Below are positions 5,432 through 22,441 of a stretch of DNA of 56,029 nt, piece by piece. The position numbers were made by a program, and so were the translations under genes. The DNA is from Fidelibacterota bacterium (GTDB lineage Bacteria; Fidelibacterota; UBA8477). Under the pieces are notes generated by a model that searched no databases, was not told the origin of the DNA, and saw nothing but the letters and a program-made list of their open reading frames with translations. The stretch spans positions 1 to 56,029 of the forward strand of contig JAIPJR010000003.1 in assembly GCA_021734045.1 (NCBI GenBank), given 5' to 3'. How positions within the stretch are numbered: position 1 is the first letter of the stretch; each line of letters begins with the position of its first letter.

Positions 5432-7075
5432 TCAAACCTGCAGTACCCCGAAATTCGGCGCCGGTAGTTGGGGTTGATTGGCGCAGATCTCTAACGACCG
5501 GATCAGGACATCGCGGGTTGTATCCGGATCAATGATTTCATCAATCCACAGCCGGGCGGCAGCATATCGGGGATCCGATTGTTTGTCATAAATCGCTTTA
5601 ATTTCGTCCACAATCTTCTGCCGTTTTTCCGGGGTTACATCTTTCTCACGGGCTAAGCGAATATCCGCCAGGACATTGGCTGCCTGGGCACCTCCCATGA
5701 CAGCAATCTTCGCTGTGGGCCAGGCATACAGAAATCGTGGCGCGTAGGCGCGACCGCTCATGGCATAATTGCCAGCCCCGTAACTCCCGCCAATCACCAA
5801 GGAAATTTTTGGTACAACCGAGTTGGAAACGGCTTGAACCATTTTAGCGCCGTCCTTAGCGATTCCGGCCCATTCAGCTTCCCGTCCCACCATAAATCCA
5901 TTCACATCATGGATGAAGAGCAGTGGAATCCGGTCCTGATTACAGTTCATGATAAACCGGGCGGCTTTGTCGGCCGAGTCATTGTAAATCACACCCCCCA
6001 TCTGCATTTCGCCGGTCTCAGTTTTCACGATGACTTTTTGGTTGGCAACGATGCCCACCTTAAACCCGCCGATTCTTCCGTGACCACACACCAGTGTCTT
6101 ACCGTAAGTGGCTTTGTACTCGTCAAACTCCGATTCATCCAAAATCCGGGCGAGAAGCTCCCGCACATCGTACTGACCACCATTTTCAGGAAAGCTGCTA
6201 AGCAACTCCGGGGGTTTGAACTGTGGTGGGCGTGACTCTACCCGATTGAACGGTGAGGGTTGGGGTTGGGGTAGATTATCCACCAGTTTCCGGATGCGTT
6301 CCAGTGCGGCTTTGTCATTGGGTTCGTGATAGTCGGCGGTACCCGAAATGGCATTGTGGGTAGTAGCGCCGCCCAAAGTCTCCAGATCTACCTCCTGCCC
6401 TATCGCCGCTTTCACCAGTGCGGGACCGGCCAGAAACATACTGGCTCCTTCCACCATGACGTACTTATCACACATGACCGGCAAATAAGCGCCACCGGCC
6501 ACGCACGGCCCCATCACCGCGGCAATTTGGGGAATCCCCAGCGCCGACAGACGGGCATTGTTGTAAAAAATGCGTCCGAAATGACCTTCATCTGGGAATA
6601 CCTGGTCCTGCATGGGTAGAAAGACTCCGGCCGAATCCACCAGGTATACAATGGGCAGATGATTCTCCAATGCAATCTGTTGAGCCCGCAAAGTCTTCTT
6701 CAGCGTTACTTCGAAGTAAGCACCCGCTTTAACGGTGGCGTCATTAGCCACAATTACCACATCCCGGGCATGGATTTGCCCAATGCCGATAATTACACCG
6801 GCCGCAGGCGGGGACCCATACTCCTCATACATTCCCCAGGCAGCAAACAAGCCCAGCTCCAGAAAGTTCGTATCCTTATCAATGAGCTTGGCGATGCGCT
6901 CCCGGGCCGTGAGACGGTTTTTTTCATGCTGGCGGTTAATGGCTTTCTCACCACCGCCTTTTCTAAGCGCCTGTCGCTCTTTTTCTATGGTCTCAATGCG
7001 TGCCACCATGAACTGGTGCTGTTTCGCCACCTTTTGCGGTGACCATTTCTCCACTGCTGTACCAATTCGCGTCAT
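5432..7075 (-). CDS. Acyl-CoA carboxylase carboxyltransferase subunit (methylcrotonyl-CoA carboxylase beta-like)
   Basis: ANDATVKAG, VDSAGVFLP, CVAGGAY, GFMVG, GSYGAGNYAM, YAAARLWIDEII. Confidence 0.92.
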   Translation of the reverse strand: MTRIGTAVEKWSPQKVAKQHQFMVARIETIEKERQALRKGGGEKAINRQHEKNRLTARERIAKLIDKDTNFLELGLFAAWGMYEEYGSPPAAGVIIGIGQIHARDVVIVANDATVKAGAYFEVTLKKTLRAQQIALENHLPIVYLVDSAGVFLPMQDQVFPDEGHFGRIFYNNARLSALGIPQIAAVMGPCVAGGAYLPVMCDKYVMVEGASMFLAGPALVKAAIGQEVDLETLGGATTHNAISGTADYHEPNDKAALERIRKLVDNLPQPQPSPFNRVESRPPQFKPPELLSSFPENGGQYDVRELLARILDESEFDEYKATYGKTLVCGHGRIGGFKVGIVANQKVIVKTETGEMQMGGVIYNDSADKAARFIMNCNQDRIPLLFIHDVNGFMVGREAEWAGIAKDGAKMVQAVSNSVVPKISLVIGGSYGAGNYAMSGRAYAPRFLYAWPTAKIAVMGGAQAANVLADIRLAREKDVTPEKRQKIVDEIKAIYDKQSDPRYAAARLWIDEIIDPDTTRDVLIRSLEICANQPQLPAPNFGVLQV

Positions 7076-10314: not shown

Positions 10315-11373
10315 TTATTCGTTATTCAGAGCAGTAATTGTGCTGCTCAAAATGTAACGAACATACGCGGGATTATGTACACCCAGACTGCGATCTTCGG
10401 TCAGCGCCTTGTAGTTCAAGACGGCGCCGGCGACCACAGCACTATAGGTGCCGGGAACCGAACTGTCACTACCCGGGGCAGTGGCACCGGTAGCATCCAG
10501 CAGGGTTTTCAGTGAATCCAGTTGTCCCTGAATTTCAGCATCCAGATCATCCATCTTGGTTTCTGCTTCATCAGCCGTATGACAATCCACACAACCGGCT
10601 GTGTTCAGGACCAATGAACCGTGATAATCATAACCCATTTTCATGGTATGACCACCGGCCTGGACACCGTAGGGTTCTGCCATATGACAGGTAACACAAG
10701 CGTCCTCGATAAGTCCGGCATGCGTAAAAGCACCATTGCCTGAATAACCAGATCCGGCATCAAACAAACCTTCACCAGCAAACACGTTGGCTTGTGGTCC
10801 ATGATGCAGGCCATATCGGGAACTGGTGATGGCAATATCAGCACCACCGGCAACCGGCCATGGATCAACCGTACGACCCTGGTGACAGCTGGCACATACA
10901 CTAGCCTTACCAAAATCATAGGTTTCAGACACATTCATCAGCTCAATCGCACCACTCACGGTAAGTGCGTAGTCGTCATCTGTATAACTGTCATGAATAT
11001 TATGACAGGTATAGCAGTTCGGTGGTGCAGGATTGCTGATCATTGCGCCATCGGCTGTGGCATCGTACGATCCGTCCAGATTACCCAAGAAACCCTGACT
11101 GGTGTGGCAAACCGCACAGTCACCGGAATTTCTTTCGAAATTTCCCCCGGTTGCGTGTGTGGAAGCCGCCCACTGGATTTCACGGGCAAACATGGCCTGG
11201 CTGTTGTCATGACATTCGGTACAGGTGGCATTGGCGTCAACGCCATCTGTGCCATCCTGCCCATCTGCTCCCGGAGGTCCGGCCGGACCTTCACAGGAGA
11301 CAGCAAACATCATCAACAAAGCCAGTGAAAAGACGAGCAACACGCTTTTCTTGACATTGTCCCTTAATACCAT
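10315..11373 (-). CDS. Hexaheme cytochrome c lipoprotein with collagen-like linker
   Basis: Lipobox FAVSC, then GPAGPPGADGQDGTDG. Six CxxCH motifs: CTECH, CAVCH, CYTCH, CASCH, CVTCH, CVDCH. SD GAGGAG. Confidence 0.9.
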   Translation of the reverse strand: MVLRDNVKKSVLLVFSLALLMMFAVSCEGPAGPPGADGQDGTDGVDANATCTECHDNSQAMFAREIQWAASTHATGGNFERNSGDCAVCHTSQGFLGNLDGSYDATADGAMISNPAPPNCYTCHNIHDSYTDDDYALTVSGAIELMNVSETYDFGKASVCASCHQGRTVDPWPVAGGADIAITSSRYGLHHGPQANVFAGEGLFDAGSGYSGNGAFTHAGLIEDACVTCHMAEPYGVQAGGHTMKMGYDYHGSLVLNTAGCVDCHTADEAETKMDDLDAEIQGQLDSLKTLLDATGATAPGSDSSVPGTYSAVVAGAVLNYKALTEDRSLGVHNPAYVRYILSSTITALNNE

Positions 11374-11637
11374 TTTGACTCTCCTCTGTTCTTTGAAGGT
11401 TTATGCTTCAATACTTTTCGTCTCGTGATTCCCCTCGGCATGATTCTTTTTCAGAAAGTTAATAACTTTCACACCGGATAGCTCCGTTTTTTCTCAAAGA
11501 TCATGCGCGAAAGATCACTTCGTATCTTAAGATGGCACTCTCCCCGCCATCCAAAGACAGCGGAAGTCAGAAATGCGTCGCAGAATTTTCCCATAAACCC
11601 TCTATATAGAATTTCATTCTGCATGGTCGGATTAACG

Positions 11638-11653
11638 GCAACATTAATGCCAA
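11638..11653 (-). promoter_or_regulatory. Candidate sigma54 (-24/-12) promoter for the cytochrome gene
   Basis: The minus strand reads TTGGCATTAATGTTGC, with the exact GG-N10-GC spacing of the RpoN consensus. Confidence 0.55.
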
Positions 11654-12069
11654 CAGCTATTACAATTCACATCAATTTCCAGACACAGCTATTCAATCGC
11701 AGCTAATTCCATTATTAATTCATGCCTGACACACACTTTCCTGCCAATCGCGAATCCATAGTAAAACTAAGTAGTTACTGCGCCACATTTTCCATGTGAA
11801 TCCCCCCAGAAAAGCAGGCTGGAATTTAGATTTCCATCATTTTGTCAAGGAGCACCGGCGTCCACCTACCGGGATTGGAATTACCCCATTTCTCACTTTT
11901 CACAATTCCATCCTACAAGATTTAGGAATGGAATTTTTCCAATGTCCCGGGATTTCAATTGATCAAAAGTTAGCTATCCCGGACAGGGACAACAATCGAT
12001 AATTCCGACCGTTATTATCGGGTTCCTATTAGGTACGACAAAGGATACCTGTGGATATTTTTCAGCGGT

Positions 12070-13719
12070 TTATTTCAGTTGATATATCTTGCTGGTGTAG
12101 TCGTCCAACATCCGCCTGGCAGTGAAATTCACGCCGGTTTTAATCGCTTCCCGCATAATCTGCAGCCAAGCGGGACGATCATCGTAAAATGTGGGGATGA
12201 CCTGTTCTGCCAACACTCGGTAAAGCGCATTAGCATCTGAGCGGTCACTGGGGACAGCCGGTTCACCAAAAGCCCAGCCGTTTTCGCCATCGCGACACCC
12301 TTCGTTCCACCAGCCGTCCAAAACGGAGAGACTGGGTACGCCATTCAGTGCGGCTTTCATACCACTGGTACCACTGGCTTCGTTGGGACGTAATGGCGTA
12401 TTCAGCCACACATCCACCCCGGCAGTGATGAGTCGTCCCAGCCACATGTTGTAATTCTCCAGGAAAACCACATTGACCCGACCATTGAGATCGCGGATAT
12501 GCCGGTACAGCTCCTGAATCACATCCTTGCCATGCTCGTCACGGGGGTGGGCTTTGCCGGAAAAGACAAACTGCACCCGACCCTCACAGATTTCGCTTAA
12601 CCGCTCCAAATCGTAAAAGAGCAAATTTGCCCGTTTATAAGTTGCCGCCCGGCGCGCAAACCCAATGGTGAGCAGGTTTGGTGAAAGACCTTTTTGGGTC
12701 ATGGCATTGGAATAATCCAACAGGTTAATTTTATTCTCCAGGTGGGCATCCCAGAGCGCATCATCTGGCACCTCGTTAATTTTCAATAATTCTACTGGTT
12801 CCTGCACCCAGCCGGGCATTTGTTTGTCAAATAAGTGCTGTGTCTCTCGGGCGGTCCAACTTAAATGGTGCACGCCATTGGTAACATCGCTGACCGCGTA
12901 TTGCGGGTACATCTTCCGGGCAACCTCGCCATGAAGCTGAGAAACCGCATTCACCGAACGACTCAGGTTTAAAGCCAGATGGGTCATGGATAACTTGCCA
13001 TGATTATCTGCTAACTCCCGGATGTTCTCCGGTGCGTATTCACCCAAAGCCGGCAATGCACTTTCGTAGGAAAATTCATCATGGCCGGCAGGAACCGGTG
13101 TATGGGTTGTAAAAACACACTGCTGCTGAACCTGCTTCACATTACCACCGGCAGATTTTAGCAGATCCAGCGTAAGAAATGCCGTGTGACCTTCGTTCAT
13201 ATGGTAAACCTGAATGGACTTCTGGTACCCCATCGCCCGAAGTGCCGCCATCCCACCCAGTCCCATAGCCATTTCCTGGTACAATCGGTGTTGATTATCT
13301 CCGGCATACAGACGGTAGCACAGCCGGCGATATTCCGGTGCATTTTCCGGCACATCCGAATCCAGAAATAAAATCGGAACCCGGTAACCACCGGCGCCCT
13401 CTACCCAGTATTGCCAAACAGCCAGATGAATGGTGTGGCTGTTGATGTGAAAAGAGACTTTTATATCCAATTTTTCTAGTAACCAGGAGGGATTGAAGGG
13501 CGGGTATTCTTCGGTCTGCTTCCCTACAGCATCCACATGTTGATTCATATAGCCTTCACGATAAAGCAGCGTGACGCCTACCAACGGTAATCCCGCATCA
13601 GCGGCTGCTTTCACATGATCGCCGGCCAGCACTCCCAAACCACCCGAATAGGACGGTATGCTGGGGGAAACACCAATCTCTGCACTAAAATAGCCCACGC
13701 GGGGTTCAAATTTAATCAC
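12070..13719 (-). CDS. glgP: Alpha-glucan (glycogen/maltodextrin) phosphorylase, compact form
   Basis: YSGGLGVLAGD, HMNEGH, FTTHTPVPAGHD, GFARRAATYKR and the PLP-lysine motif EASGTSGMK. GTG 13719 follows AAGGAG. Confidence 0.93.
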   Translation of the reverse strand: MIKFEPRVGYFSAEIGVSPSIPSYSGGLGVLAGDHVKAAADAGLPLVGVTLLYREGYMNQHVDAVGKQTEEYPPFNPSWLLEKLDIKVSFHINSHTIHLAVWQYWVEGAGGYRVPILFLDSDVPENAPEYRRLCYRLYAGDNQHRLYQEMAMGLGGMAALRAMGYQKSIQVYHMNEGHTAFLTLDLLKSAGGNVKQVQQQCVFTTHTPVPAGHDEFSYESALPALGEYAPENIRELADNHGKLSMTHLALNLSRSVNAVSQLHGEVARKMYPQYAVSDVTNGVHHLSWTARETQHLFDKQMPGWVQEPVELLKINEVPDDALWDAHLENKINLLDYSNAMTQKGLSPNLLTIGFARRAATYKRANLLFYDLERLSEICEGRVQFVFSGKAHPRDEHGKDVIQELYRHIRDLNGRVNVVFLENYNMWLGRLITAGVDVWLNTPLRPNEASGTSGMKAALNGVPSLSVLDGWWNEGCRDGENGWAFGEPAVPSDRSDANALYRVLAEQVIPTFYDDRPAWLQIMREAIKTGVNFTARRMLDDYTSKIYQLK

Positions 13720-13789
13720 GCTCAACGACTCCTTTTTATCCAAAGGCCAAACAACGGTTTTTGTTTCACATCCTGACACCTGAAATCTG

Positions 13790-15883
13790 TTACGAATTCA
13801 GAGGTGTCTCCACAGTGAGTGAAAATGAAATTTTCTGCGACTTCCCGGGTGCCAAATCAAAATGCCACAGGGGCAATACACCGGACGCCTGATACACACG
13901 CTCAAAACCCGCTTCCGACATGGAAACAGTCTCAACTGGCGCTCGCCACAGCCGCACCGGATCTAAAAATTCCAGCGCAATCGCGAAATTATCCCACTCG
14001 CTGGCTACACGAACTTCACGAACGCCTTCATTTTCAGCTTTGGTGTTTAGCGTACACCGGGTATCGGCATCACCATTGAGCTCATAATACCTATCCGGAC
14101 TATTACCGCCCAGTAGTCCAAAATTGAACTCATTTCCGTAAAATCCACGGATGGCATGTTCCGAAGTGTTTTTAATGGCAATTTCGAAGCGGAGTCCCTG
14201 GTCCGACATGGTCACCGTTTTCTGCAAGGTCACCGGCAACTTCCAGATAAACCCTGTAGCTGTAAGCCGGATGCCGTCTTTAATGCGATCTACGTGGAAG
14301 CGGGTATTGAGGAAACTGCCACCTTCCACCGTCTCTGACCGGAAATAGCGTTCCAACGATTCATCCTCACCAAAAAAATGGTCAATCCAACTCATGCGCG
14401 GGTATTTATCGATAAACAGGGCATCCTGGAGGTTTTCCTCCTTTGCCAGAACCAGATCATGAATGGAGCCACCAGCGTTTGCAGCAGTGGTAGCTTGCGA
14501 CAATTTGTGGTGATAACTCTCGGAATACCGCGTAAGGGTATTCAATACATTGAAATGGACCGGTACCACATCCAGCTCCTGGATCGCGGCACCATTCTCA
14601 CGGATGAAAACCTGCAACATTGTATTACGAAGTTGATATTCCGGCAGACCATCCTTATCAATATCCACGATTCGCATGGGTTCGTGGGATACTTTATTCA
14701 GGGCTTGTTCCGCTTTCAACAAATGCTCAAAAATTGCGTGACGCAGGTGTGGCAGGTACAATCCACCAAATACACCATGCCAGAATCCGCAATTGCATTC
14801 TGCCCGGTAGAGATCGTCCTTCACTTCGGACGGCAGTGGTCCCACCATTGACGTTTCCAGGTTGGTAATGCGATCCGACAGATCCTGGACACGTTTCTGC
14901 ATCCAGTTGGATTCGGTGTATTTTGAGAGGAAATTCCGCCAAATCCCACCCTTCACGAATGGCCGAGCGAATTCCTCCTCACCGGCATTATGTAGCTGGT
15001 GGACAAACTTTTCCAAATCCTGCCCCAGACTGGTGGGCAGCGTCCACTGGGACATCTCAAAATAGGAAGCCGTTGGTAAATAAATCAATCCCCGGGGCTG
15101 ATGGGTGGTGTAATACGATTTAAAGGTCGTGGTGTGGAGCCAGTCCTGGTTTTCAGTCAGCAGCGTGAAAAAGCGTTGCAGCCATTTCTCTTCATACACG
15201 GTTGTGTAAGTGCCTGGCCAAATGCCGAATTTTTCACCATCATCGGCCATCACCACCACATGTTGACCATCTTCAGTGGCCTTCTCCCGTAAAATATCAA
15301 TGGTTTTCTGGGGGTCATCGAAGGGCATGGCGTAGCGTAATTGCTGAGAAATGGGAAAAACACCCAGCGTCTGCCCCTCATCTTCGGTATTGAAATAACC
15401 GGTAAGCGCTTCCGGGCGTAGGCCGGCCGACAGAAAATGATAGTCGTCCAGAACAATGTAATCCAATCCGGACTGGGCGATGGGTGATACCAGATGGGGC
15501 TCCCAAACACGCTCCGTTAACCAGCTACCCCGGGCGTCATAATTAAACCGCTTTTTTAAATAGCGATTCATTTTACGCAACTGTCCCAGCTTGTCCCGAT
15601 TGGGAATCATGGTGAGAATCGGCTCATAAAAACCAGCAGACAGCAATTCCACAGATCCACGCCTCACCAATGTATCCAGCAGTTCTAAAACCTCTGGCCG
15701 GTTTCCCTCCAGCCATTCAATCAGCGATCCACTGAAATGGAAACTCATCTGGAGCGTGGGGAACTGTTCCAGCGTCTCAAGAAATGGCTGGTACGCCCGG
15801 TCGCAGGCGTCGTGCATGACCGCATCAAAATTGCCTACGGGCTGGTGATTATGAATACCAAAAATAAATTGAATAGATTTCAC
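13790..15883 (-). CDS. GH57 alpha-amylase/4-alpha-glucanotransferase
   Basis: HNHQPVGN, WLTERVWEP, DDGEKFG, AECNCGFWHGVFGGLYLPHLR; C-terminal SEAGFERVYQ. Confidence 0.92.
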   Translation of the reverse strand: MKSIQFIFGIHNHQPVGNFDAVMHDACDRAYQPFLETLEQFPTLQMSFHFSGSLIEWLEGNRPEVLELLDTLVRRGSVELLSAGFYEPILTMIPNRDKLGQLRKMNRYLKKRFNYDARGSWLTERVWEPHLVSPIAQSGLDYIVLDDYHFLSAGLRPEALTGYFNTEDEGQTLGVFPISQQLRYAMPFDDPQKTIDILREKATEDGQHVVVMADDGEKFGIWPGTYTTVYEEKWLQRFFTLLTENQDWLHTTTFKSYYTTHQPRGLIYLPTASYFEMSQWTLPTSLGQDLEKFVHQLHNAGEEEFARPFVKGGIWRNFLSKYTESNWMQKRVQDLSDRITNLETSMVGPLPSEVKDDLYRAECNCGFWHGVFGGLYLPHLRHAIFEHLLKAEQALNKVSHEPMRIVDIDKDGLPEYQLRNTMLQVFIRENGAAIQELDVVPVHFNVLNTLTRYSESYHHKLSQATTAANAGGSIHDLVLAKEENLQDALFIDKYPRMSWIDHFFGEDESLERYFRSETVEGGSFLNTRFHVDRIKDGIRLTATGFIWKLPVTLQKTVTMSDQGLRFEIAIKNTSEHAIRGFYGNEFNFGLLGGNSPDRYYELNGDADTRCTLNTKAENEGVREVRVASEWDNFAIALEFLDPVRLWRAPVETVSMSEAGFERVYQASGVLPLWHFDLAPGKSQKISFSLTVETPLNS

Positions 15884-15939
15884 AAATTTTCTTTCTACAA
15901 CACATCATCTTTAATGATGGCGTTTAATTGAACAGCGGT

Positions 15940-17364
15940 TCAGGTAACCGGATCGACGACCTGGATTTTTAACATATTGGTGGTGCCTGACTGCCCGATG
16001 GGAATCCCGGCTGACAGGACGAATCGGTCGCCAGCTGCTACTGCTTGCAGCGCAGTTAATTTCTCCGTCGCCAGAGCCAGCATCTCATCCGTATTTGCAT
16101 AAGGCTGCACCACGATAGGCTGGACACCCCAGGTCAGTTTTAACTGGCGGGCCACCGGTAGAAACGGTGTCAGTGAATAAATCGTGGCAAAGGGTCGGTA
16201 TTTGGAAACGGCCCGGGCTGTGGCACCCGAATGGGTCATGGTGACAATCACCCGGATATCCAACAGATTGGCAATATTTCCGGATGCGTGGGCAATGGCA
16301 TCCGACTCTGTGTGTTGGGGAATGACCACGGCCATGCGAGGATCCACTTTGGGGTCAATTTCAACTTCGGAAATAATTCGATCCATCTGCTGAACAGTCT
16401 CCACCGGGAATTTGCCAATCGCTGTTTCGCCCGTCAGGAGCAGCGCATCCGTGCCATCGTAAACCGCATTGGCCACGTCGGTTACTTCCGCACGGGTTGG
16501 ATAGGGATTTTCCTGCATGGTAGAGAGCAGCTGAGTCGCGATAACCACGGTTTTCCCCGCCATATTGGCCGTGCGAATAATTCGTTTCTGAATGGCCGGT
16601 AATTGTTCCAGTGGAACTTCTACCCCCAGATCACCACGAGCCACCATCACCCCATCGAATGCCTGAACAATTTCATCCAGGGCGTCCAGCGCTTCCGGTT
16701 TCTCGATCTTGGCCAGTATGGGAATATATTTCTGGTGCTGGTTCATGATGCGTTGCAGGGGCTCAATGTCATCCGCATGACGAACGAAGGAAAGCGCGAC
16801 CCAGTCCACATTTTTTTCCAGTGCGAACTCAAAATCGGCCACATCTTTGGCTGTAATAGCCGGGACGTCTAAATCAATGTTGATGAAATTAACACCTTTA
16901 CGGGGTTTCAAGAATCCGCCCCGCTTCACCCTGACCTCCAACAACTCGTTGGAAATAGAGGCAATCACGTCCAGTAAAATCCGGCCATCGTCCGCGGAAA
17001 TGCGAGCACCCTCTTTCACGCCCCGAAACTTGAATTCACCGGTGAGCGGAATCCCTTCCGTTGGCGCGACTGCACCTGCACACCCCAATAAAACGGCAGC
17101 ACCATCGGTCAACTCCCAGCCATCCGCAAAATCCACCGTACGGATTTTCGGCCCGGCCAAGTCTACCAGAATCGCCGGTCCTACCCCCTCATTTTGAGAC
17201 TCCCAATCTCGGATCCGCTTCAAAATATTATCATAATAGGTGTGATTTTGCTGCGACATGTTAAATCGCACCGCATCCAGACCGGTTGCCAGTAAATCGT
17301 TGAGGCCTGCTTCGCTATCCGAAGCAGGCCCCACTGTTGCAACGATTTTGGTTTTCCGCACCAT
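15940..17364 (-). CDS. pyk: Pyruvate kinase
   Basis: TKIVATVGP, DLAGPKIR, AKIEK, VMVARGDLGVE, PTRAEVTDVANAVYDG. Confidence 0.93.
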   Translation of the reverse strand: MVRKTKIVATVGPASDSEAGLNDLLATGLDAVRFNMSQQNHTYYDNILKRIRDWESQNEGVGPAILVDLAGPKIRTVDFADGWELTDGAAVLLGCAGAVAPTEGIPLTGEFKFRGVKEGARISADDGRILLDVIASISNELLEVRVKRGGFLKPRKGVNFINIDLDVPAITAKDVADFEFALEKNVDWVALSFVRHADDIEPLQRIMNQHQKYIPILAKIEKPEALDALDEIVQAFDGVMVARGDLGVEVPLEQLPAIQKRIIRTANMAGKTVVIATQLLSTMQENPYPTRAEVTDVANAVYDGTDALLLTGETAIGKFPVETVQQMDRIISEVEIDPKVDPRMAVVIPQHTESDAIAHASGNIANLLDIRVIVTMTHSGATARAVSKYRPFATIYSLTPFLPVARQLKLTWGVQPIVVQPYANTDEMLALATEKLTALQAVAAGDRFVLSAGIPIGQSGTTNMLKIQVVDPVT

Positions 17365-17392
17365 TTTATTGAATCACCTGATTGGGTATCCC

Positions 17393-18388
17393 TCAGGCAA
17401 TTTTTAACAACAGATCGAGTACACGGTTGGAGTACCCGGTTTCGTTATCATACCAACCAGAGATTTTCAGGAAATTCCCGTCCACCACATTGGTGAGTCC
17501 GCTGTCAAAAATAACGCTATGGCGATTGCCAACAATGTCAATGGATACCAACGGATCGGTGGTGTACTCCATGATGCCCTTCAGGTAGGTTTCTGAGGCT
17601 TTTTTCATGGCGGCATTCACCGCTTCAACCGTGACATCCTGTTTCAGTTGTAATGCCAGCTCGGTAATAGAACCATCCGGTACGGGCACCCGGTGGGCAA
17701 CACCATCCAGCTTGCCCTTCATTTGGGGAATGATTTTCCCAATGGCTTTGGCGGCTCCGGTTGAGGTGGGGATGACAGAGTACGCTGCCGCACGAGCTCG
17801 CCGGGGATCCGAATGCGGGTAATCCAGCAGACGCTGGTCCAGGGTGTAGGCATGAATGGTCAGCAGGAATCCATGCTCAATCCCAAAATTATCCTCGATA
17901 ACCTTCACCATGGGAGCGGCACAATTTGTGGTGCAACTGGCATTGGAAACCAGTTTGTGCTCCGGCCGAAGGACCTCGTCATTGACACCCAGCACAATCG
18001 AAGCGTCCAGCTCATCTTTGGCCGGGACGGTGAGAATGACTTTTTTCGCACCCGCTTGTAAATGCTTTTCAATCTGCTCCCGTTTCCGGAATGCGCCGGT
18101 GGATTCAATCACCACATCAACGCCCAGGTCTTTCCAGGGCAATGCGGCTGGATCCCGTTCCGAGAAAACTTGAATTTTTTTACCCCCAATTGAAATGAAA
18201 CCGTCTGCATAGCTCACCTCTCCCGGAAAAGCGCCATGCACCGAATCATATTTCAACACCGGTGTTATGGTGGCGGGATCAGCCAGTTCGTTGATGGCTA
18301 CAAATTCAATATCATCTTTGCGCAGAAGTGCTTCACGGAGGACTGTGCGCCCGATTCTTCCGAATCCGTTAATCGCGACTTTTGTCAT
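17393..18388 (-). CDS. gap: Type I glyceraldehyde-3-phosphate dehydrogenase
   Basis: INGFGRIGR, SNASCTTNC, HAYT-DQ, PTSTGAAKA, WYDNE. Confidence 0.96.
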   Translation of the reverse strand: MTKVAINGFGRIGRTVLREALLRKDDIEFVAINELADPATITPVLKYDSVHGAFPGEVSYADGFISIGGKKIQVFSERDPAALPWKDLGVDVVIESTGAFRKREQIEKHLQAGAKKVILTVPAKDELDASIVLGVNDEVLRPEHKLVSNASCTTNCAAPMVKVIEDNFGIEHGFLLTIHAYTLDQRLLDYPHSDPRRARAAAYSVIPTSTGAAKAIGKIIPQMKGKLDGVAHRVPVPDGSITELALQLKQDVTVEAVNAAMKKASETYLKGIMEYTTDPLVSIDIVGNRHSVIFDSGLTNVVDGNFLKISGWYDNETGYSNRVLDLLLKIA

Positions 18389-18410
18389 AAAAACCTCCTC
18401 TTAATCAAAT

Positions 18411-18432
18411 AGTCACTCGTTTATGAGTTACT
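18411..18432. promoter_or_regulatory. Candidate TrmB operator at the gap promoter
   Basis: Imperfect palindrome AGTCACTC-N6-GAGTTACT immediately downstream of the gap -10 box. It matches the site upstream of trmB. Confidence 0.7.
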
Positions 18433-18434
18433 GA

Positions 18435-18463
18435 AAGATAGTGTGTACATTTTCACCAGTCAA
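18435..18463 (-). promoter_or_regulatory. sigma70-type promoter of gap
   Basis: The minus strand reads TTGACT-N17-TATCTT. Confidence 0.7.
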
Positions 18464-18518
18464 GCAGATTGTAAAATGTCCTTACTATCTTAAGCATTTT
18501 CGTCCACAATGGCGAATA

Positions 18519-19358
18519 TCATGCCGAAGCAATTCCGGGAGGGAAGGTGGGTTTATGCTGCTCATCGAAGAGATCATCCAGGCTCTCAATGTCGCCTTCA
18601 AGCATATCAGCTACGATATCGCCCAGATAAACCTTAAAGCGCTGCGCTAACAGCGTCAGGTCCAGAATGATGTAATTCAATGCGATGGAAACGATTGCAT
18701 AATTTTTGGTCCAGGCCACTTTCAGACCGGGTTTGTCATCAGAGCCCCCCAGAAGCGCGGTCTCTTTATCCACCACCATGAGAATTTTTTTACTCCAAAT
18801 TCTGACCAGCTTGGTGGTTTTCAGGTTGTAGGAAAAAACCATTCCCACATCCTGGGGAATTTCCGTAAAAGAAAAGATTAAAATCTTTACCCCGCGTGCT
18901 TCCGCCTCCCGCAAATCCTCCACAAGATGATCGTATTCCGGCCGCCAGATGGAGAGATAAATGGTTTCCCGTGCCGCCTGAATCATGGATTTGGCACGCT
19001 GCAGCATATTGTCGTAGCCAACGATATTCCACAAATCCCCCACTTCCATGGTGGTATGGATAGATTTCAGAGAATTCTTCAATTCATCAATGTCACTGGT
19101 AAAGCGCTGCTCCAGCAATTCAAACAAATGATCGGGTGGTAGTGGAATGTAGCGCGTGGGATTGGTATCGGTTACACTTACCAGACCCATGGTTTCCAGC
19201 CGTTTCAGAATTTCGTAAATGGCGGAGCGTGGAACCCCTGACTTACCGCTGATTTCATACCCTGTAGCCGGATTGGCGCGTAACAATGTCAGGTACGCTT
19301 TGCTCTCGTTCGCGGTGAATCCCAGGCTCTTCAGTGTGGCAATAATTTTACTATCCAT
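18519..19358 (-). CDS. TrmB family transcriptional regulator
   Basis: LGFTANESKAYLTLL...ATGYEISGKSGVPRSAIYEILKRL winged HTH plus a C-terminal effector domain. ATG 19358 follows GAGG. Confidence 0.9.
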   Translation of the reverse strand: MDSKIIATLKSLGFTANESKAYLTLLRANPATGYEISGKSGVPRSAIYEILKRLETMGLVSVTDTNPTRYIPLPPDHLFELLEQRFTSDIDELKNSLKSIHTTMEVGDLWNIVGYDNMLQRAKSMIQAARETIYLSIWRPEYDHLVEDLREAEARGVKILIFSFTEIPQDVGMVFSYNLKTTKLVRIWSKKILMVVDKETALLGGSDDKPGLKVAWTKNYAIVSIALNYIILDLTLLAQRFKVYLGDIVADMLEGDIESLDDLFDEQHKPTFPPGIASA

Positions 19359-19372
19359 TGGTGCCTCGCATA

Positions 19373-19394
19373 CGTTACTCACTAATTAGTCACG
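19373..19394. promoter_or_regulatory. Candidate TrmB autoregulatory operator
   Basis: CGTTACTC-N6-TAGTCACG lies just downstream of the trmB -10 box. Confidence 0.7.
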
Positions 19395-19398
19395 CTTC

Positions 19399-19427
19399 AA
19401 TATAACGGACGAATCACGTCCCTTCAA
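19399..19427 (-). promoter_or_regulatory. sigma70-type promoter of trmB
   Basis: The minus strand reads TTGAAG-N17-TATATT. Confidence 0.7.
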
Positions 19428-19522
19428 GCCGATATTAGCCTGTTGCCTGCACGCTGCAAACGGGATATGTCTGCATGAGGATGGAAAATATTCATTGCAT
19501 CTATTTAGCGGGTTAGGTTAAA

Positions 19523-20158
19523 TTGGAAACGATGGACACGGAAATCGTTTTCAGCGATACGAGACGGCGGGTGCTGCAGTACTTTGAAACACAAATCCAC
19601 CGCACCGGTCTGGGCGCCTTCACGGTGGACCAAATGTCCCGGGAGCTGAAAATCTCCAAACGAACCATTTATCAGGAATTCCCCAACAAAGCAGCCATCG
19701 TAAGTGCCTTTGTGGACACAGTCAAAGGGCGGTTGGATGAGCATTTCCACGCTATTGATGCACTGGACCTGCGTCCCGCCCAACGGCTCATTCTGGCCTT
19801 CAAAGGTGTTTTAGATATCCTCACCCCTTTTTTGAACCAAACCATCTCTGATCTGAAACAACTCTATCCAGATATTTGGCATGGCCTTGTTCAATTCAGA
19901 ATGGAAAAGTTTAACCACCTGTTCAACCTACTCCATCAAGCCCAGGGTGATGGCGACCTGAACCCCAACCTGAATCTGGATCGTCTGGCCTACCTCTTGC
20001 CCCGGGTCATGGATGAACTGTTCCAACCGGAAATCGTCTTTCATCCCGATCATGCATCCCGCGACATGGTGAAAGAGGTGTTCTTAATTCTGTTCCAGGG
20101 TATTTTCGCCGGTAAAATACGTGATTCCTTCCTCCAACTTTTTAATGAAAATGAGTAG
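19523..20158 (+). CDS. TetR/AcrR family regulator (start may be ATG 19532)
   Basis: FTVDQMSRELKISKRTIYQEFPNK HTH motif. Confidence 0.9.
   Translation: METMDTEIVFSDTRRRVLQYFETQIHRTGLGAFTVDQMSRELKISKRTIYQEFPNKAAIVSAFVDTVKGRLDEHFHAIDALDLRPAQRLILAFKGVLDILTPFLNQTISDLKQLYPDIWHGLVQFRMEKFNHLFNLLHQAQGDGDLNPNLNLDRLAYLLPRVMDELFQPEIVFHPDHASRDMVKEVFLILFQGIFAGKIRDSFLQLFNENE
19524..19553. promoter_or_regulatory. Candidate TetR operator overlapping the tetR start
   Basis: TGGAAACGAT-N10-ATCGTTTTCA, a 9/10 inverted match. Confidence 0.45.
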
Positions 20159-20161
20159 TAC

Positions 20162-22441
20162 ATGAAGCGATTGGTTGAATTCATCACCCGTCACCCCAAA
20201 TCGGTCATTGCCTTTACCCTACTTTTTATCGGCGTCATGGCGGCTCCGCTGGGACGCCTGACAATTGACCCGGATATGCTGTCACTCATCGACCAGAATG
20301 ATCCGGACCTGGTTCGTATGGACGAGATTGATGAGATTTTCGGCGGTCAGGACATCGCCATTATCTCCGTTGCAGCGGAGAATGCATTCCACCCCAGAAT
20401 TTTGCAGATCGTAGACAGCCTGACGCAGGCAATCGAGGGAATGGATTATGTGGATCGGGTTACCAGCATCACCAACGTGGAGATTATCCGCGGTGCCAAT
20501 GATTTCATGTCGGTTGATCCCTTCCTGGAAGTTATTCCCAGTTCGCAAGAGGAACAGGATAGCCTGGGTCACTTGGCGGCGCAGGAAAAACTCATCCAGG
20601 ACATTCTGATTTCAGACGACCAGACCCATACTGCTATTCTCGTTTTTCTTAGTGAAGGCGGCTATGATGAGGTCCTGTATCGTCAGTTCAAATCATTCAC
20701 GGATCGCTATCAATCGGAGGATGTTATCATAGAGCTGGGTGGCATGCCCATTATCCGCTACCATATCTCTGCGGATATTGAGCATGATGTGGTCACCTTC
20801 ATTCCTCTGGGTATGTCACTCATGGTTATTCTGTTATTCTTCAGTTTCCGTTCGTGGCGAGGTGTGCTGCTACCCATGGGTGTGGTGGCCATGTCCATCG
20901 CTGCCACATTGGGCTTGATGGCCTGGCTGGATATTTCACTGAAAATTGTTACCAACCTCGTTCCGGTAATGCTTATCGCCATTGCCAATGCCTATGGTAT
21001 TCACATTCTGGCACGCTACTACGAAGATGTACGCGAGCTGGGAGCAGGCGCTCCCATTCATGATATCATCTATCGGGGTATTAAACACATTTCAACGCCC
21101 ATCTTACTGGCGGGTGTTACTACCATAGCGGGCTTTTTATCCCTGCTCTCTCATGTCCTGCCCGCTTCACGGGAAGTGGGTATCCTGAGTGCATTCGGAA
21201 TTGCTTTATCATTCATTTTATCCATCACATTTATTCCGGCAGTGTTGACACTATTGCGTCGGCCAAGTGCTACGGAGAACATTCACAATGACGAAAGTCG
21301 GTATATTTCCCGGGTGCTCAGCCACCTAGGTGATGCGGTTTACCACCACCAGAAGCTTACCCTGACCATATTCATTGGACTCACCATCATCGCCGCCTTT
21401 GGGATTCCCCAGATTGTGGTGGACAGCAATCCTCTGAATTATTACGAGAAAGGTTCGGAAATCCACCGCATCAGCACCGTGATTAATGAAAATTATGGTG
21501 GTTCCTCCAGTATGTCAGTGGTTGTGGAAGGGGATATCCGTGAACCGGTGGTATTAAAACAGATTGAAGCGATTCAAAGTTACCTGGACACGCTGCCGGA
21601 CATCGGATATACCATGTCCATAGTGGACTTCATCAAAGAGATGAATGCTGCTATGCACAACAACGATCCCCGCTATTACCGCATTCCAGAATCCCGGGAC
21701 CTGGTCGCCCAGTACTTACTCCTCTACTCTTTTGAAAGCAGTGAAGGCACGCTGGATACCTATGTGGATTATGAGTATTACCAGGCCCAGGTGGTTATTC
21801 GCATATCCACCTTTGATGTGGATCGGATGGTGGTGATTGAGAACAAGCTGAATCAATTCCTGGACGAGAATATCCGGGTGGACAATCAGCCCAAGGCGGA
21901 AGGTTACGCTGTTCTTATCGCCCATCTGATTCCCATGATGGTAAATGGTCAAATCCGTAGCCTTTTTGTTTCGCTCTTTTTTGTAGCGGTCATCGTTGGT
22001 CTTTTTTTCCGCTCAGGAATGGCCGCATTATTCTCGGTTCTGCCCTTAACCACCGGCGTGGTGAGTGTATTTGGTCTCATGGGATATTTTGATGTCTATC
22101 TCAATGCCGGAACCTCCATGCTCAGCTCCATTGTCGTGGGCGTGGGTATTGACTACACGATTCACTTTTTGTACCGGTTTCGTCTGGAGATCCGCCAGGG
22201 CGCCAGTGATCTGGATGCCTTGCACACCACGTTGAAGACGACCGGCCAGGGAATTTTGTTTAACGCGCTTGCGGTAATGGTTGGCTTTTCCGTCAACATG
22301 CTATCTAATTTCTTGCCCATTTACTTTTTCGGGTGGCTCATCCTGGTTTCCATTTTGGTGTGTACCATTGGTGCCATGACACTGTTGCCCGGATTAATCA
22401 TGCAAATCAGGCCAAAGTTTGTCTATGGAGAGAGGCGTTAA
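20162..22441 (+). CDS. MMPL/RND family transporter, copy 1
   Basis: Two 1+5 TM repeats; IANAYGIH, TTIAGFLSL, GVGIDYTIH. Confidence 0.9.
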   Translation: MKRLVEFITRHPKSVIAFTLLFIGVMAAPLGRLTIDPDMLSLIDQNDPDLVRMDEIDEIFGGQDIAIISVAAENAFHPRILQIVDSLTQAIEGMDYVDRVTSITNVEIIRGANDFMSVDPFLEVIPSSQEEQDSLGHLAAQEKLIQDILISDDQTHTAILVFLSEGGYDEVLYRQFKSFTDRYQSEDVIIELGGMPIIRYHISADIEHDVVTFIPLGMSLMVILLFFSFRSWRGVLLPMGVVAMSIAATLGLMAWLDISLKIVTNLVPVMLIAIANAYGIHILARYYEDVRELGAGAPIHDIIYRGIKHISTPILLAGVTTIAGFLSLLSHVLPASREVGILSAFGIALSFILSITFIPAVLTLLRRPSATENIHNDESRYISRVLSHLGDAVYHHQKLTLTIFIGLTIIAAFGIPQIVVDSNPLNYYEKGSEIHRISTVINENYGGSSSMSVVVEGDIREPVVLKQIEAIQSYLDTLPDIGYTMSIVDFIKEMNAAMHNNDPRYYRIPESRDLVAQYLLLYSFESSEGTLDTYVDYEYYQAQVVIRISTFDVDRMVVIENKLNQFLDENIRVDNQPKAEGYAVLIAHLIPMMVNGQIRSLFVSLFFVAVIVGLFFRSGMAALFSVLPLTTGVVSVFGLMGYFDVYLNAGTSMLSSIVVGVGIDYTIHFLYRFRLEIRQGASDLDALHTTLKTTGQGILFNALAVMVGFSVNMLSNFLPIYFFGWLILVSILVCTIGAMTLLPGLIMQIRPKFVYGERR

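Follow-up and report, generated by a model that had tools for sequence, protein, structure and literature searches.

What does a TrmB-family gene do directly upstream of gap and a set of alpha-glucan genes in a bacterium? TrmB proteins are textbook archaeal sugar regulators, and the present host belongs to the Marinimicrobia/Fidelibacterota, bacteria that are abundant in the ocean and lakes and almost entirely uncultured. The locus lies in a 56,029-nucleotide (nt) stretch of a Fidelibacterota bacterium genome (assembly GCA_021734045.1, contig JAIPJR010000003.1, positions 1 to 56,029), hereafter called the window. Positions 12070-19427 carry five co-oriented genes, all on the minus strand: trmB, gap, pyk, a glycoside hydrolase family 57 (GH57) enzyme and an alpha-glucan phosphorylase. 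We propose, with a probability of roughly 75%, that a 22-bp palindrome occurring twice in this region serves as operator for the TrmB-family protein whose gene lies at 18519-19358 and which would repress genes of glucan uptake, phosphorolysis and glycolysis until a metabolite releases it. The analysis establishes the sequences, the gene identities, where the sites lie and how well they are kept, and a predicted fold; we infer that TrmB binds the DNA, that it acts as a repressor and not as an activator, and that a ligand exists and what it is. The bacterial TrmB regulon as such is a well-supported prediction from sequence. The features concerned are as follows.

19399-19427, minus strand: trmB promoter-like element, TTGAAG-17 nt-TATATT (hexamer match; conservation in relatives)
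19373-19394: predicted trmB operator, minus-strand sequence CGTGACTAATTAGTGAGTAACG (19.1 bits, genome rank 5)
18519-19358, minus strand: trmB, 279 residues; winged helix, coiled-coil helix and PLD-like effector subdomain (Pfam PF01978, PF11495)
18435-18463, minus strand: gap-operon promoter-like element, TTGACT-17 nt-TATCTT (hexamer match; conservation in relatives)
18411-18432: predicted gap-operon operator, minus-strand sequence AGTAACTCATAAACGAGTGACT (27.6 bits, genome rank 1)
17393-18388, minus strand: gap, type I glyceraldehyde-3-phosphate dehydrogenase (TIGR01534, 426 bits, cut-off 367)
15940-17364, minus strand: pyk, pyruvate kinase (TIGR01064, 464 bits, cut-off 306)
13790-15883, minus strand: GH57 4-alpha-glucanotransferase (three Pfam domains; likeness to 1k1w)
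12070-13779, minus strand: small alpha-glucan phosphorylase, 569 residues (TIGR02094, 557.8 bits, cut-off 191.7)
11973-11993, minus strand: terminator-like hairpin 3' of the phosphorylase gene (weak consensus match only)

The pattern GTYACTC-N6-KAGTYAC was matched exactly at two places in the window (18412-18431 and 19374-19393) and at none in 100 shuffles, and the looser pattern GTNACT-N8-AGTNAC has just these two matches in the whole genome of 2,536,204 bases. Read on the coding strand, the gap region is laid out as TTGACT-17-TATCTT-TC-AGTAACTCATAAACGAGTGACT, followed by the gap ATG after 22 nt, and the trmB region as TTGAAG-17-TATATT-GAAG-CGTGACTAATTAGTGAGTAACG, followed by the trmB ATG after about 14 nt, so that the 22-base palindromes start 2 nt (gap) and 4 nt (trmB) past the -10 hexamers. 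The gap-operon operator would cover the transcription start expected from the promoter hexamers. This layout is as described in an earlier sequence-only reading of the locus, which had placed two copies of the palindrome at 18411-18432 and 19373-19394, each 2-4 nt downstream of a TTGAnn-N17-TATnTT promoter. In the four loci of the same family, both hexamers of the trmB promoter are kept and their 17-18-nt spacers differ, and TTGACn and TATnTT are kept at the gap promoter, again with variable spacers of 17-18 nt. The hexamers gain weight only because they are kept in relatives while their spacers vary. Within the order, TATATT stands directly before the site in 28 of 29 loci; locus L005 reads CTATATTGG, and the upstream sequence of L008 is too short for TATATT to be assessed. 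A GC-rich hairpin, GGACG-N5-CGTCC, fills the -35/-10 spacer of trmB (19407-19421) and is retained with changed stem letters in the closest relative. It is probably incidental, being absent from the next two relatives.

The arrangement recurs widely in relatives. All 29 same-order relatives yielded a TrmB orthologue, as did 12 of 31 other genomes of the phylum. In each of the 28 same-order loci with sequence downstream of trmB, gap comes next, which is the synteny that had been suggested as a check. The trmB operator is kept upstream of trmB across the order, and the gap-proximal site is kept in L002-L004, L005 and L019, of which L005 and L019 represent two sister-family genera. The motif is thus conserved upstream of orthologous gap and trmB genes, where the sequence-only reading had staked its case, and far beyond them. 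In 80 trmB loci of the phylum, which together span 590,230 bases, we counted 36 copies of ACTC-N6-GAGT, where simple arithmetic over all the sequence gives about 9 by chance. Of these copies, 32 lie near trmB, at most 250 nt upstream or 150 nt downstream of the gene. The phylum consensus, AGTAACTC-N6-GAGTTACT with extended arms AGTAAC/GTTACT, appears near TrmBs that are just 35-45% identical to that of the window; in one other family the site precedes a gap-gap-trmB operon. When the motif (at least 12 bits) was tabulated against linkage of trmB to alpha-glucan genes or gap, 38 of the 80 loci had both and 30 neither, with linkage only in 6 and motif only in 6; the motif calls in this table are partly circular, as the matrix was derived from the same loci, but the linkage calls are not. 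At distant loci trmB is followed by a GH57 enzyme and phosphorylase, or by a GH77 4-alpha-glucanotransferase, phosphorylase and a sodium-solute symporter, and gap (plus pyk in the window's own family) stands between trmB and the glucan genes only in the window's order. This indicates that the older partnership is trmB with a glucanotransferase (GH57 or GH77) and phosphorylase, and from these gene orders gap and pyk look like later additions to the cassette.

In the sister family, the trmB promoter shows TATATT followed 4-5 nt on by CGTAACTAAGAACTGAGACACG. The trmB-gap spacer measures 66-84 nt there and, in most members, contains no operator but only a small hairpin, and this operator-free spacer suggests that gap is co-transcribed from the trmB promoter. 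The hairpin (L033-L051, for example L033:4835-4913) lies just 5' of the ribosome-binding site, and 5 of its 12 predicted pairs keep pairing through two-sided changes; it may serve in the processing or attenuation of a trmB-gap transcript. The same loci (L005-L028, L033-L052) carry two tandem gap paralogues after trmB, which are about 40% and 50-57% identical to the gap of the window, and most of them lack pyk.

The genome was scanned with a matrix constructed from 32 trmB-linked sites, none of which came from this genome and 3 of which came from same-order relatives. Expected counts were obtained from shuffles within 1-kb blocks, which keep the local base composition but not dinucleotides. A scan with a matrix from the two window sites had been proposed with the motif; the present one recovered both of them, that of gap at rank 1 (27.6 bits) and that of trmB at rank 5 (19.1 bits), together with coherent targets. 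Six hits reached at least 18 bits, compared with 0.63 in shuffles, and four reached at least 22 bits, compared with 0.07. Two sites are located upstream of a 1000-residue TonB-dependent receptor gene, which heads a starch-uptake locus encoding a 1377-residue protein, a PorV-like protein, a type-IX-secreted starch-binding protein with a family 20 carbohydrate-binding module (CBM20) and a secreted GH13 amylase; the other side carries glgA and a gene for a second GH13 enzyme. At fba, which encodes class II fructose-bisphosphate aldolase, the left arm of the site coincides with the -10 hexamer. The site of ppdK (pyruvate-phosphate dikinase) is located 216 nt before the ATG, and its 14.0 bits are not significant alone. 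A further site of 22.5 bits (G000:C111:1835-1856) is present just 5' of a gene for an 86-residue DUF2582 winged-helix protein (open reading frame L112:1861-2121), which, judged by this position, may be a second-tier regulator under TrmB.

These sites persist in related loci: that of fba in 27 of 28 evaluable loci (25 of them with at least 12 bits), that of ppdK in 24 of 27 (three loci without upstream sequence were dropped), and that of the receptor in 17 of 20 (two dropped). At all three genes the arms are invariant and the spacers and flanks vary. The fba, ppdK and receptor sites are hence supported by their conservation in relatives. Two distant genomes outside the order have, between them, three strict-motif hits that are not at trmB, and all of these stand before sugar genes: a CBM53 amylase gene, a pfk-fba operon and a gene for a CBM20/48/53 starch-binding protein. 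With fba, ppdK and the starch-uptake locus included, the regulon concerns external alpha-glucan as well as glycogen and is therefore wider than the window. The coupling of glycogen mobilisation to lower glycolysis, as originally put forward, is consistent with the coherent targets and conserved sites, but its outline was too narrow for the predicted regulon, which adds fba, ppdK and starch uptake.

Several minor features were noted around these sites. The open reading frame for the 1377-residue protein (G000:C9:11867-16000; L178:5868-10001) directly follows that of the TonB-dependent receptor and has no Pfam match; it may encode an undescribed surface glycan-binding protein. Right after the ppdK site, a TGGCAY-N5-TTGT box is found in three same-genus loci (G000:C15, about 6106-6125, equivalent to L116:2607-2626; L149; L150), which we take to resemble a sigma-54 -24/-12 promoter. 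Three other hits were treated as probable chance matches, namely C85:14906 (16.8 bits, within a sulfatase-like open reading frame), C17:4549 (15.4 bits, at the end of cydB) and C75:5958 (12.9 bits, before a uracil-DNA glycosylase gene).

How such a site would act can be proposed from its geometry. A TrmB dimer, joined via its coiled-coil helix, would seat a pair of winged helices on the cores ACTC and GAGT, which do not vary, are 10 bp apart from centre to centre and therefore face the same side of the DNA, an arrangement that suits a dimer. The operator starts 2-10 nt past the conserved -10 hexamer at gap, trmB and the receptor gene, and overlaps it at fba. With the operator overlapping a sigma-70-type -10 hexamer or directly after it, TrmB bound there should keep out RNA polymerase, and a site in the promoter of trmB itself implies negative autoregulation. 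The targets would be trmB itself (negative feedback), the gap-pyk-GH57-phosphorylase operon, fba, ppdK and the outer-membrane starch-uptake locus. Release of TrmB would come about through some metabolite, in the simplest case a sugar derived from alpha-glucan or an intermediate of glycolysis, and would turn on uptake, phosphorolysis and glycolysis together.

Whether the protein itself suits this role was examined from its domains and model structure. The PF01978 winged helix-turn-helix was detected at residues 9-75 with 77 bits (cut-off 25.6), which places the protein in the TrmB family, and it is the single such protein above the cut-off in the genome. Its Y48 falls on the tyrosine of 3qph in the alignment and does not vary among 45 sequences; a review describes the role of this conserved recognition-helix tyrosine, Tyr49/50 of TrmBL1/TrmB. 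The AlphaFold model (mean predicted local distance difference test score, pLDDT, of 88) consists of a winged helix (1-72), a long helix (75-98) that corresponds to the TrmB coiled coil, and a PLD-like alpha/beta unit (109-240), whose strands and helices match NucT and PLD folds and represent the first effector subdomain, a PLD-like sheet with flanking helices. The PF11495 effector domain was likewise detected with 38.3 bits (cut-off 22.2), but over profile positions 2-98 of 233 only. The second effector subdomain is absent, as the model shows just two short helices (246-265) after the helix 220-240, and 2f5t was aligned to it by Foldseek over 132 columns only. A review describes this second subdomain of Thermococcus litoralis TrmB as a seven-stranded barrel to which six of the seven contacts with the sugar belong. 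The evidence therefore does not support archaeal-style sugar sensing by this 279-residue protein, and that part of the sequence-only reading had to be given up; its autoregulated repressor fared better, because the operator placement fits autorepression and the sites are kept in relatives. What the protein responds to may be a glycolytic intermediate or a partner protein, or a sugar held in another manner, and there may be no signal at all.

The best Foldseek matches of the model were TrmBL2 chains (E 1.5e-13), and Pyrococcus furiosus TrmB (3qph) was matched with E 4e-12. The scores against the NCBIfam equivalogs were 92 bits for TrmBL1 (cut-off 650), 64 for TrmB (600), 46 for haloarchaeal TrmB (500) and 21 for TrmBL2 (530), all far below the cut-offs, which indicates that the protein is not an orthologue of any characterised subfamily. 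Public annotation already labels its homologues TrmB, and those of 44-51% identity include Calditrichota, for example Caldithrix abyssi. The effector subdomain is strongly conserved in the 45 sequences, with W110, W138, W188 and Y177 invariant and W216 present in at least 90%; this tryptophan-rich conservation may be read as a hint, not as evidence, of a ligand or partner surface.

Several observations weigh against TrmB acting as a metabolite-released repressor at this palindrome. The promoter scan had no statistical power of its own (11 found, 10.9 expected from shuffles), and the hexamers are matches to the sigma-70 consensus, which may not be that of the host phylum. A look for transcript evidence among sequencing runs gave 4 DNA-type runs from lake water and none of RNA. 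In this single genome, 8 hits of at least 14 bits compare with 2.4 expected, and hits under about 16 bits carry no significance by themselves; the ppdK site lies 167-216 nt before the ATG in the window's family, with an unclear relation to the promoter. With an effector domain that is truncated, TrmB may not be under ligand control. A second TrmB subgroup (about 27 loci; L059-L069, L072-L077 and L086-L106, for example L062:2102-7382), which is 37-45% identical and arranged as sodium-solute symporter, trmB and secreted GH13 amylase, has no AGTAACTC-N6-GAGTTACT site anywhere in the examined flanks and, still in an alpha-glucan context, presumably uses a different operator. Outside the order, the strict motif was found in 2 of 10 TrmB-positive and 0 of 10 TrmB-negative genomes, a co-occurrence that fits the proposal but carries little weight, since a pattern of 12 positions is seldom met in any case and one subgroup of TrmB has no motif. 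As 8 of the 10 positives and the subgroup of about 27 loci are without the site, motif and TrmB do not always travel together. In addition, many relatives are close kin, so that the conservation counts overstate independence.

Part of this evidence would also suit a TrmB that binds the same sites other than as a ligand-released repressor, either as an activator or dual regulator or as a ligand-free, TrmBL2-like DNA organiser whose level alone sets expression. Such action would accord with the missing second sugar-binding subdomain, with fold matches that are best to TrmBL2, titled an archaeal chromatin protein in the PDB, with the published statement that archaeal TrmBs activate or repress according to site position, and with the ppdK site, which is far upstream of the ATG and precedes the conserved TGGCAY-N5-TTGT box. 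We nevertheless consider it unlikely as a general explanation, since the sites at gap, trmB, fba and the receptor gene overlap or directly follow a conserved -10 hexamer, which is the classic repressor position, and since they are few and sequence-specific rather than chromatin-like, with only 6 hits of at least 18 bits in 2.5 Mb. The strong conservation of the effector subdomain also points to a surface for a ligand or partner. At some promoters, above all that of ppdK, TrmB may nonetheless activate or act without a ligand.

The identity of the binding protein can be questioned as well. The 22.5-bit site just upstream of the DUF2582 gene (G000:C111:1835) could mean that the palindrome belongs to that winged-helix protein, or to an unrecognised regulator, and that trmB is merely one target. 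This is very improbable, given that the motif adjoins trmB in 44 of the 80 loci, down to 35% protein identity, that its half-site cores match archaeal TrmB operators, and that the genome has one TrmB-family protein above the PF01978 cut-off and yielded no LacI, RpiR or SorC domain. No regulator gene other than trmB and that of DUF2582 has a strong site, and DUF2582 was rejected as the true binder on its distribution: it was found in only 9 of the 61 genomes searched and in none of the 26 from the sister family, though the sister family keeps the sites. The domains of CggR/SorC (PF04198), HexR/RpiR (PF01418) and LacI/Cra (PF00356) were not found in this 92%-complete genome, and control genomes did match them, which agrees with the proposal that TrmB stands in place of CggR, HexR or Cra. 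That the palindromes are instead RNA hairpins in 5' leaders, or chance or repeat elements, is scarcely credible. Any palindrome can fold, and both window copies would enter the 5' leader if the predicted starts are right, but the arm sequence is conserved without compensatory changes and the 6-nt spacer varies freely, the left arm at fba coincides with the -10 hexamer, and sites are also found upstream of promoters and in divergent intergenic regions. With only 6 strong copies per genome they are not a dispersed repeat, and no Rfam family matched window positions 11500-20200 at E up to 1, which also counts against an RNA element. TrmB is hence retained as the probable repressor at these sites, and it can be set beside known systems.

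TrmBL1/Tgr of Pyrococcus furiosus and Thermococcus kodakarensis is functionally the closest. It is likewise a TrmB-family regulator with a palindromic site, and the direction of its control is described in a review as dependent on the site position relative to the promoter (PMC4158304). The Pyrococcus TrmBL1 regulon obtained by chromatin immunoprecipitation sequencing is described as including a GH57 glucanotransferase, alpha-glucan phosphorylase, a starch-binding protein, amylases and glycolytic genes (PMC4706686), which are the same kinds of genes as predicted here. TrmBL1 is also the best NCBIfam match of the window protein (residues 2-169, 92 bits, far below the cut-off of 650). It differs in its motif, TATCAC-N5-GTGATA compared with AGTAACTC-N6-GAGTTACT, and in its archaeal host with TATA/BRE promoters compared with a bacterium with sigma-70-type promoters, and the present TrmB, unlike TrmBL1, has 279 residues without the second effector subdomain. 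The present trmB has an autoregulation site, whereas the P. furiosus study reports no TGM at the promoter of trmBL1 (PMC4706686).

Archaeal TrmB sites are quoted in the review as TACT-N3-AGTA and TACT-N7-8-GAGTA (PMC4158304). The latter, the haloarchaeal consensus, shares the core ACT-N7-GAGT with the present site when the quoted consensus is compared, which bears out, at this core, a likeness that had been pointed out from the sequence. The TrmBs of Halobacterium salinarum (VNG1451C) and Haloarcula hispanica are described as similarly global central-carbon regulators with gap-type targets. The haloarchaeal protein differs in being mainly a glucose-released activator of gluconeogenesis with a full two-subdomain effector domain, and the NCBIfam score is 46 bits with a cut-off of 500. 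TrmBL2 (PDB 5box, 5bpd) is similar in size (about 260-280 residues) and is the best Foldseek match (E 1.5e-13), but it is a chromatin protein by its PDB title, the sites here are few and highly specific, and the score of 21 bits is far from the cut-off of 530. Palindromic sites with ACT/AGT cores at target promoters, including those of sugar genes, as in a TrmB-type regulon, were found here computationally. A repressor gene directly upstream of gap is also known from Bacillus subtilis, in the form of cggR. CggR, a member of the SorC family, is described as repressing glycolytic genes through operator binding that is relieved by a metabolite (PMC2943609), similar to the action proposed here. 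It is however of an unrelated family, and it binds tandem direct repeats as a tetramer, where for TrmB a dimer on a palindrome is proposed.

TrmB proteins are quoted as about 12% of archaeal and only 0.5% of bacterial transcription factors (PMC9426492), and their occurrence in bacteria is stated in papers (PMC4158304 and PMC9426492 among them). A search that left most subscription journals outside gave no characterised bacterial two-domain TrmB and no paper on a regulon of such a protein, its operator, or TrmB in Marinimicrobia, Caldithrix or Calditrichota; it turned up one described isolate of the host phylum. The present analysis provides a concrete operator, AGTAACTC-N6-GAGTTACT, and a coherent predicted regulon of starch uptake, glucan phosphorolysis and glycolysis. 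If it is true, the expression of carbohydrate genes in Marinimicrobia metatranscriptomes would become readable through one regulator, and the compact, orthogonal repressor-operator pair should function on sigma-70-type promoters; one would also have to ask by what means a TrmB that lacks the sugar barrel can sense anything. A broader idea, which we offer tentatively as conceivable but rather doubtful, is that the Marinimicrobia/Fidelibacterota, with close homologues in Calditrichota, hold a TrmB lineage that shed the sugar barrel, runs the carbohydrate economy, and senses via the tryptophan-rich PLD-like subdomain or a partner. The regulator, its ACT...AGT half-site preference and its GH57 and phosphorylase targets would then have moved between archaea and bacteria as one unit, and the regulon would have grown stepwise to gap, pyk, fba, pfk and ppdK.

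The co-oriented genes proved to be those named in the sequence-only reading, all five identities being confirmed by Pfam, NCBIfam and the match to 1k1w. The GH57 protein was aligned with this T. litoralis 4-alpha-glucanotransferase over residues 1-667 of 697 (E 7e-147), and its GH57 catalytic domain with AmyA middle and C-terminal domains makes it an enzyme of the T. litoralis type. The phosphorylase belongs to TIGR02094 and stays below the Thermococcales equivalog (456 bits, cut-off 1500). For trmB, the open reading frame listing starts at GTG 19382, but ATG 19358 is preferred because it has GAGG 7 nt upstream and agrees with the N-termini of 30 orthologues, among which that of L012 begins with TTG. 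The hairpin at 11973-11993 is, from its sequence and position, the probable operon end. Downstream of the operon lies a multi-haem cytochrome gene with MtrC/c7-like domains (10315-11373), and upstream of trmB, on the other flank, a divergent TetR regulator gene and a gene for a transporter with MMPL/sterol-sensing domains are located (19523-22441).

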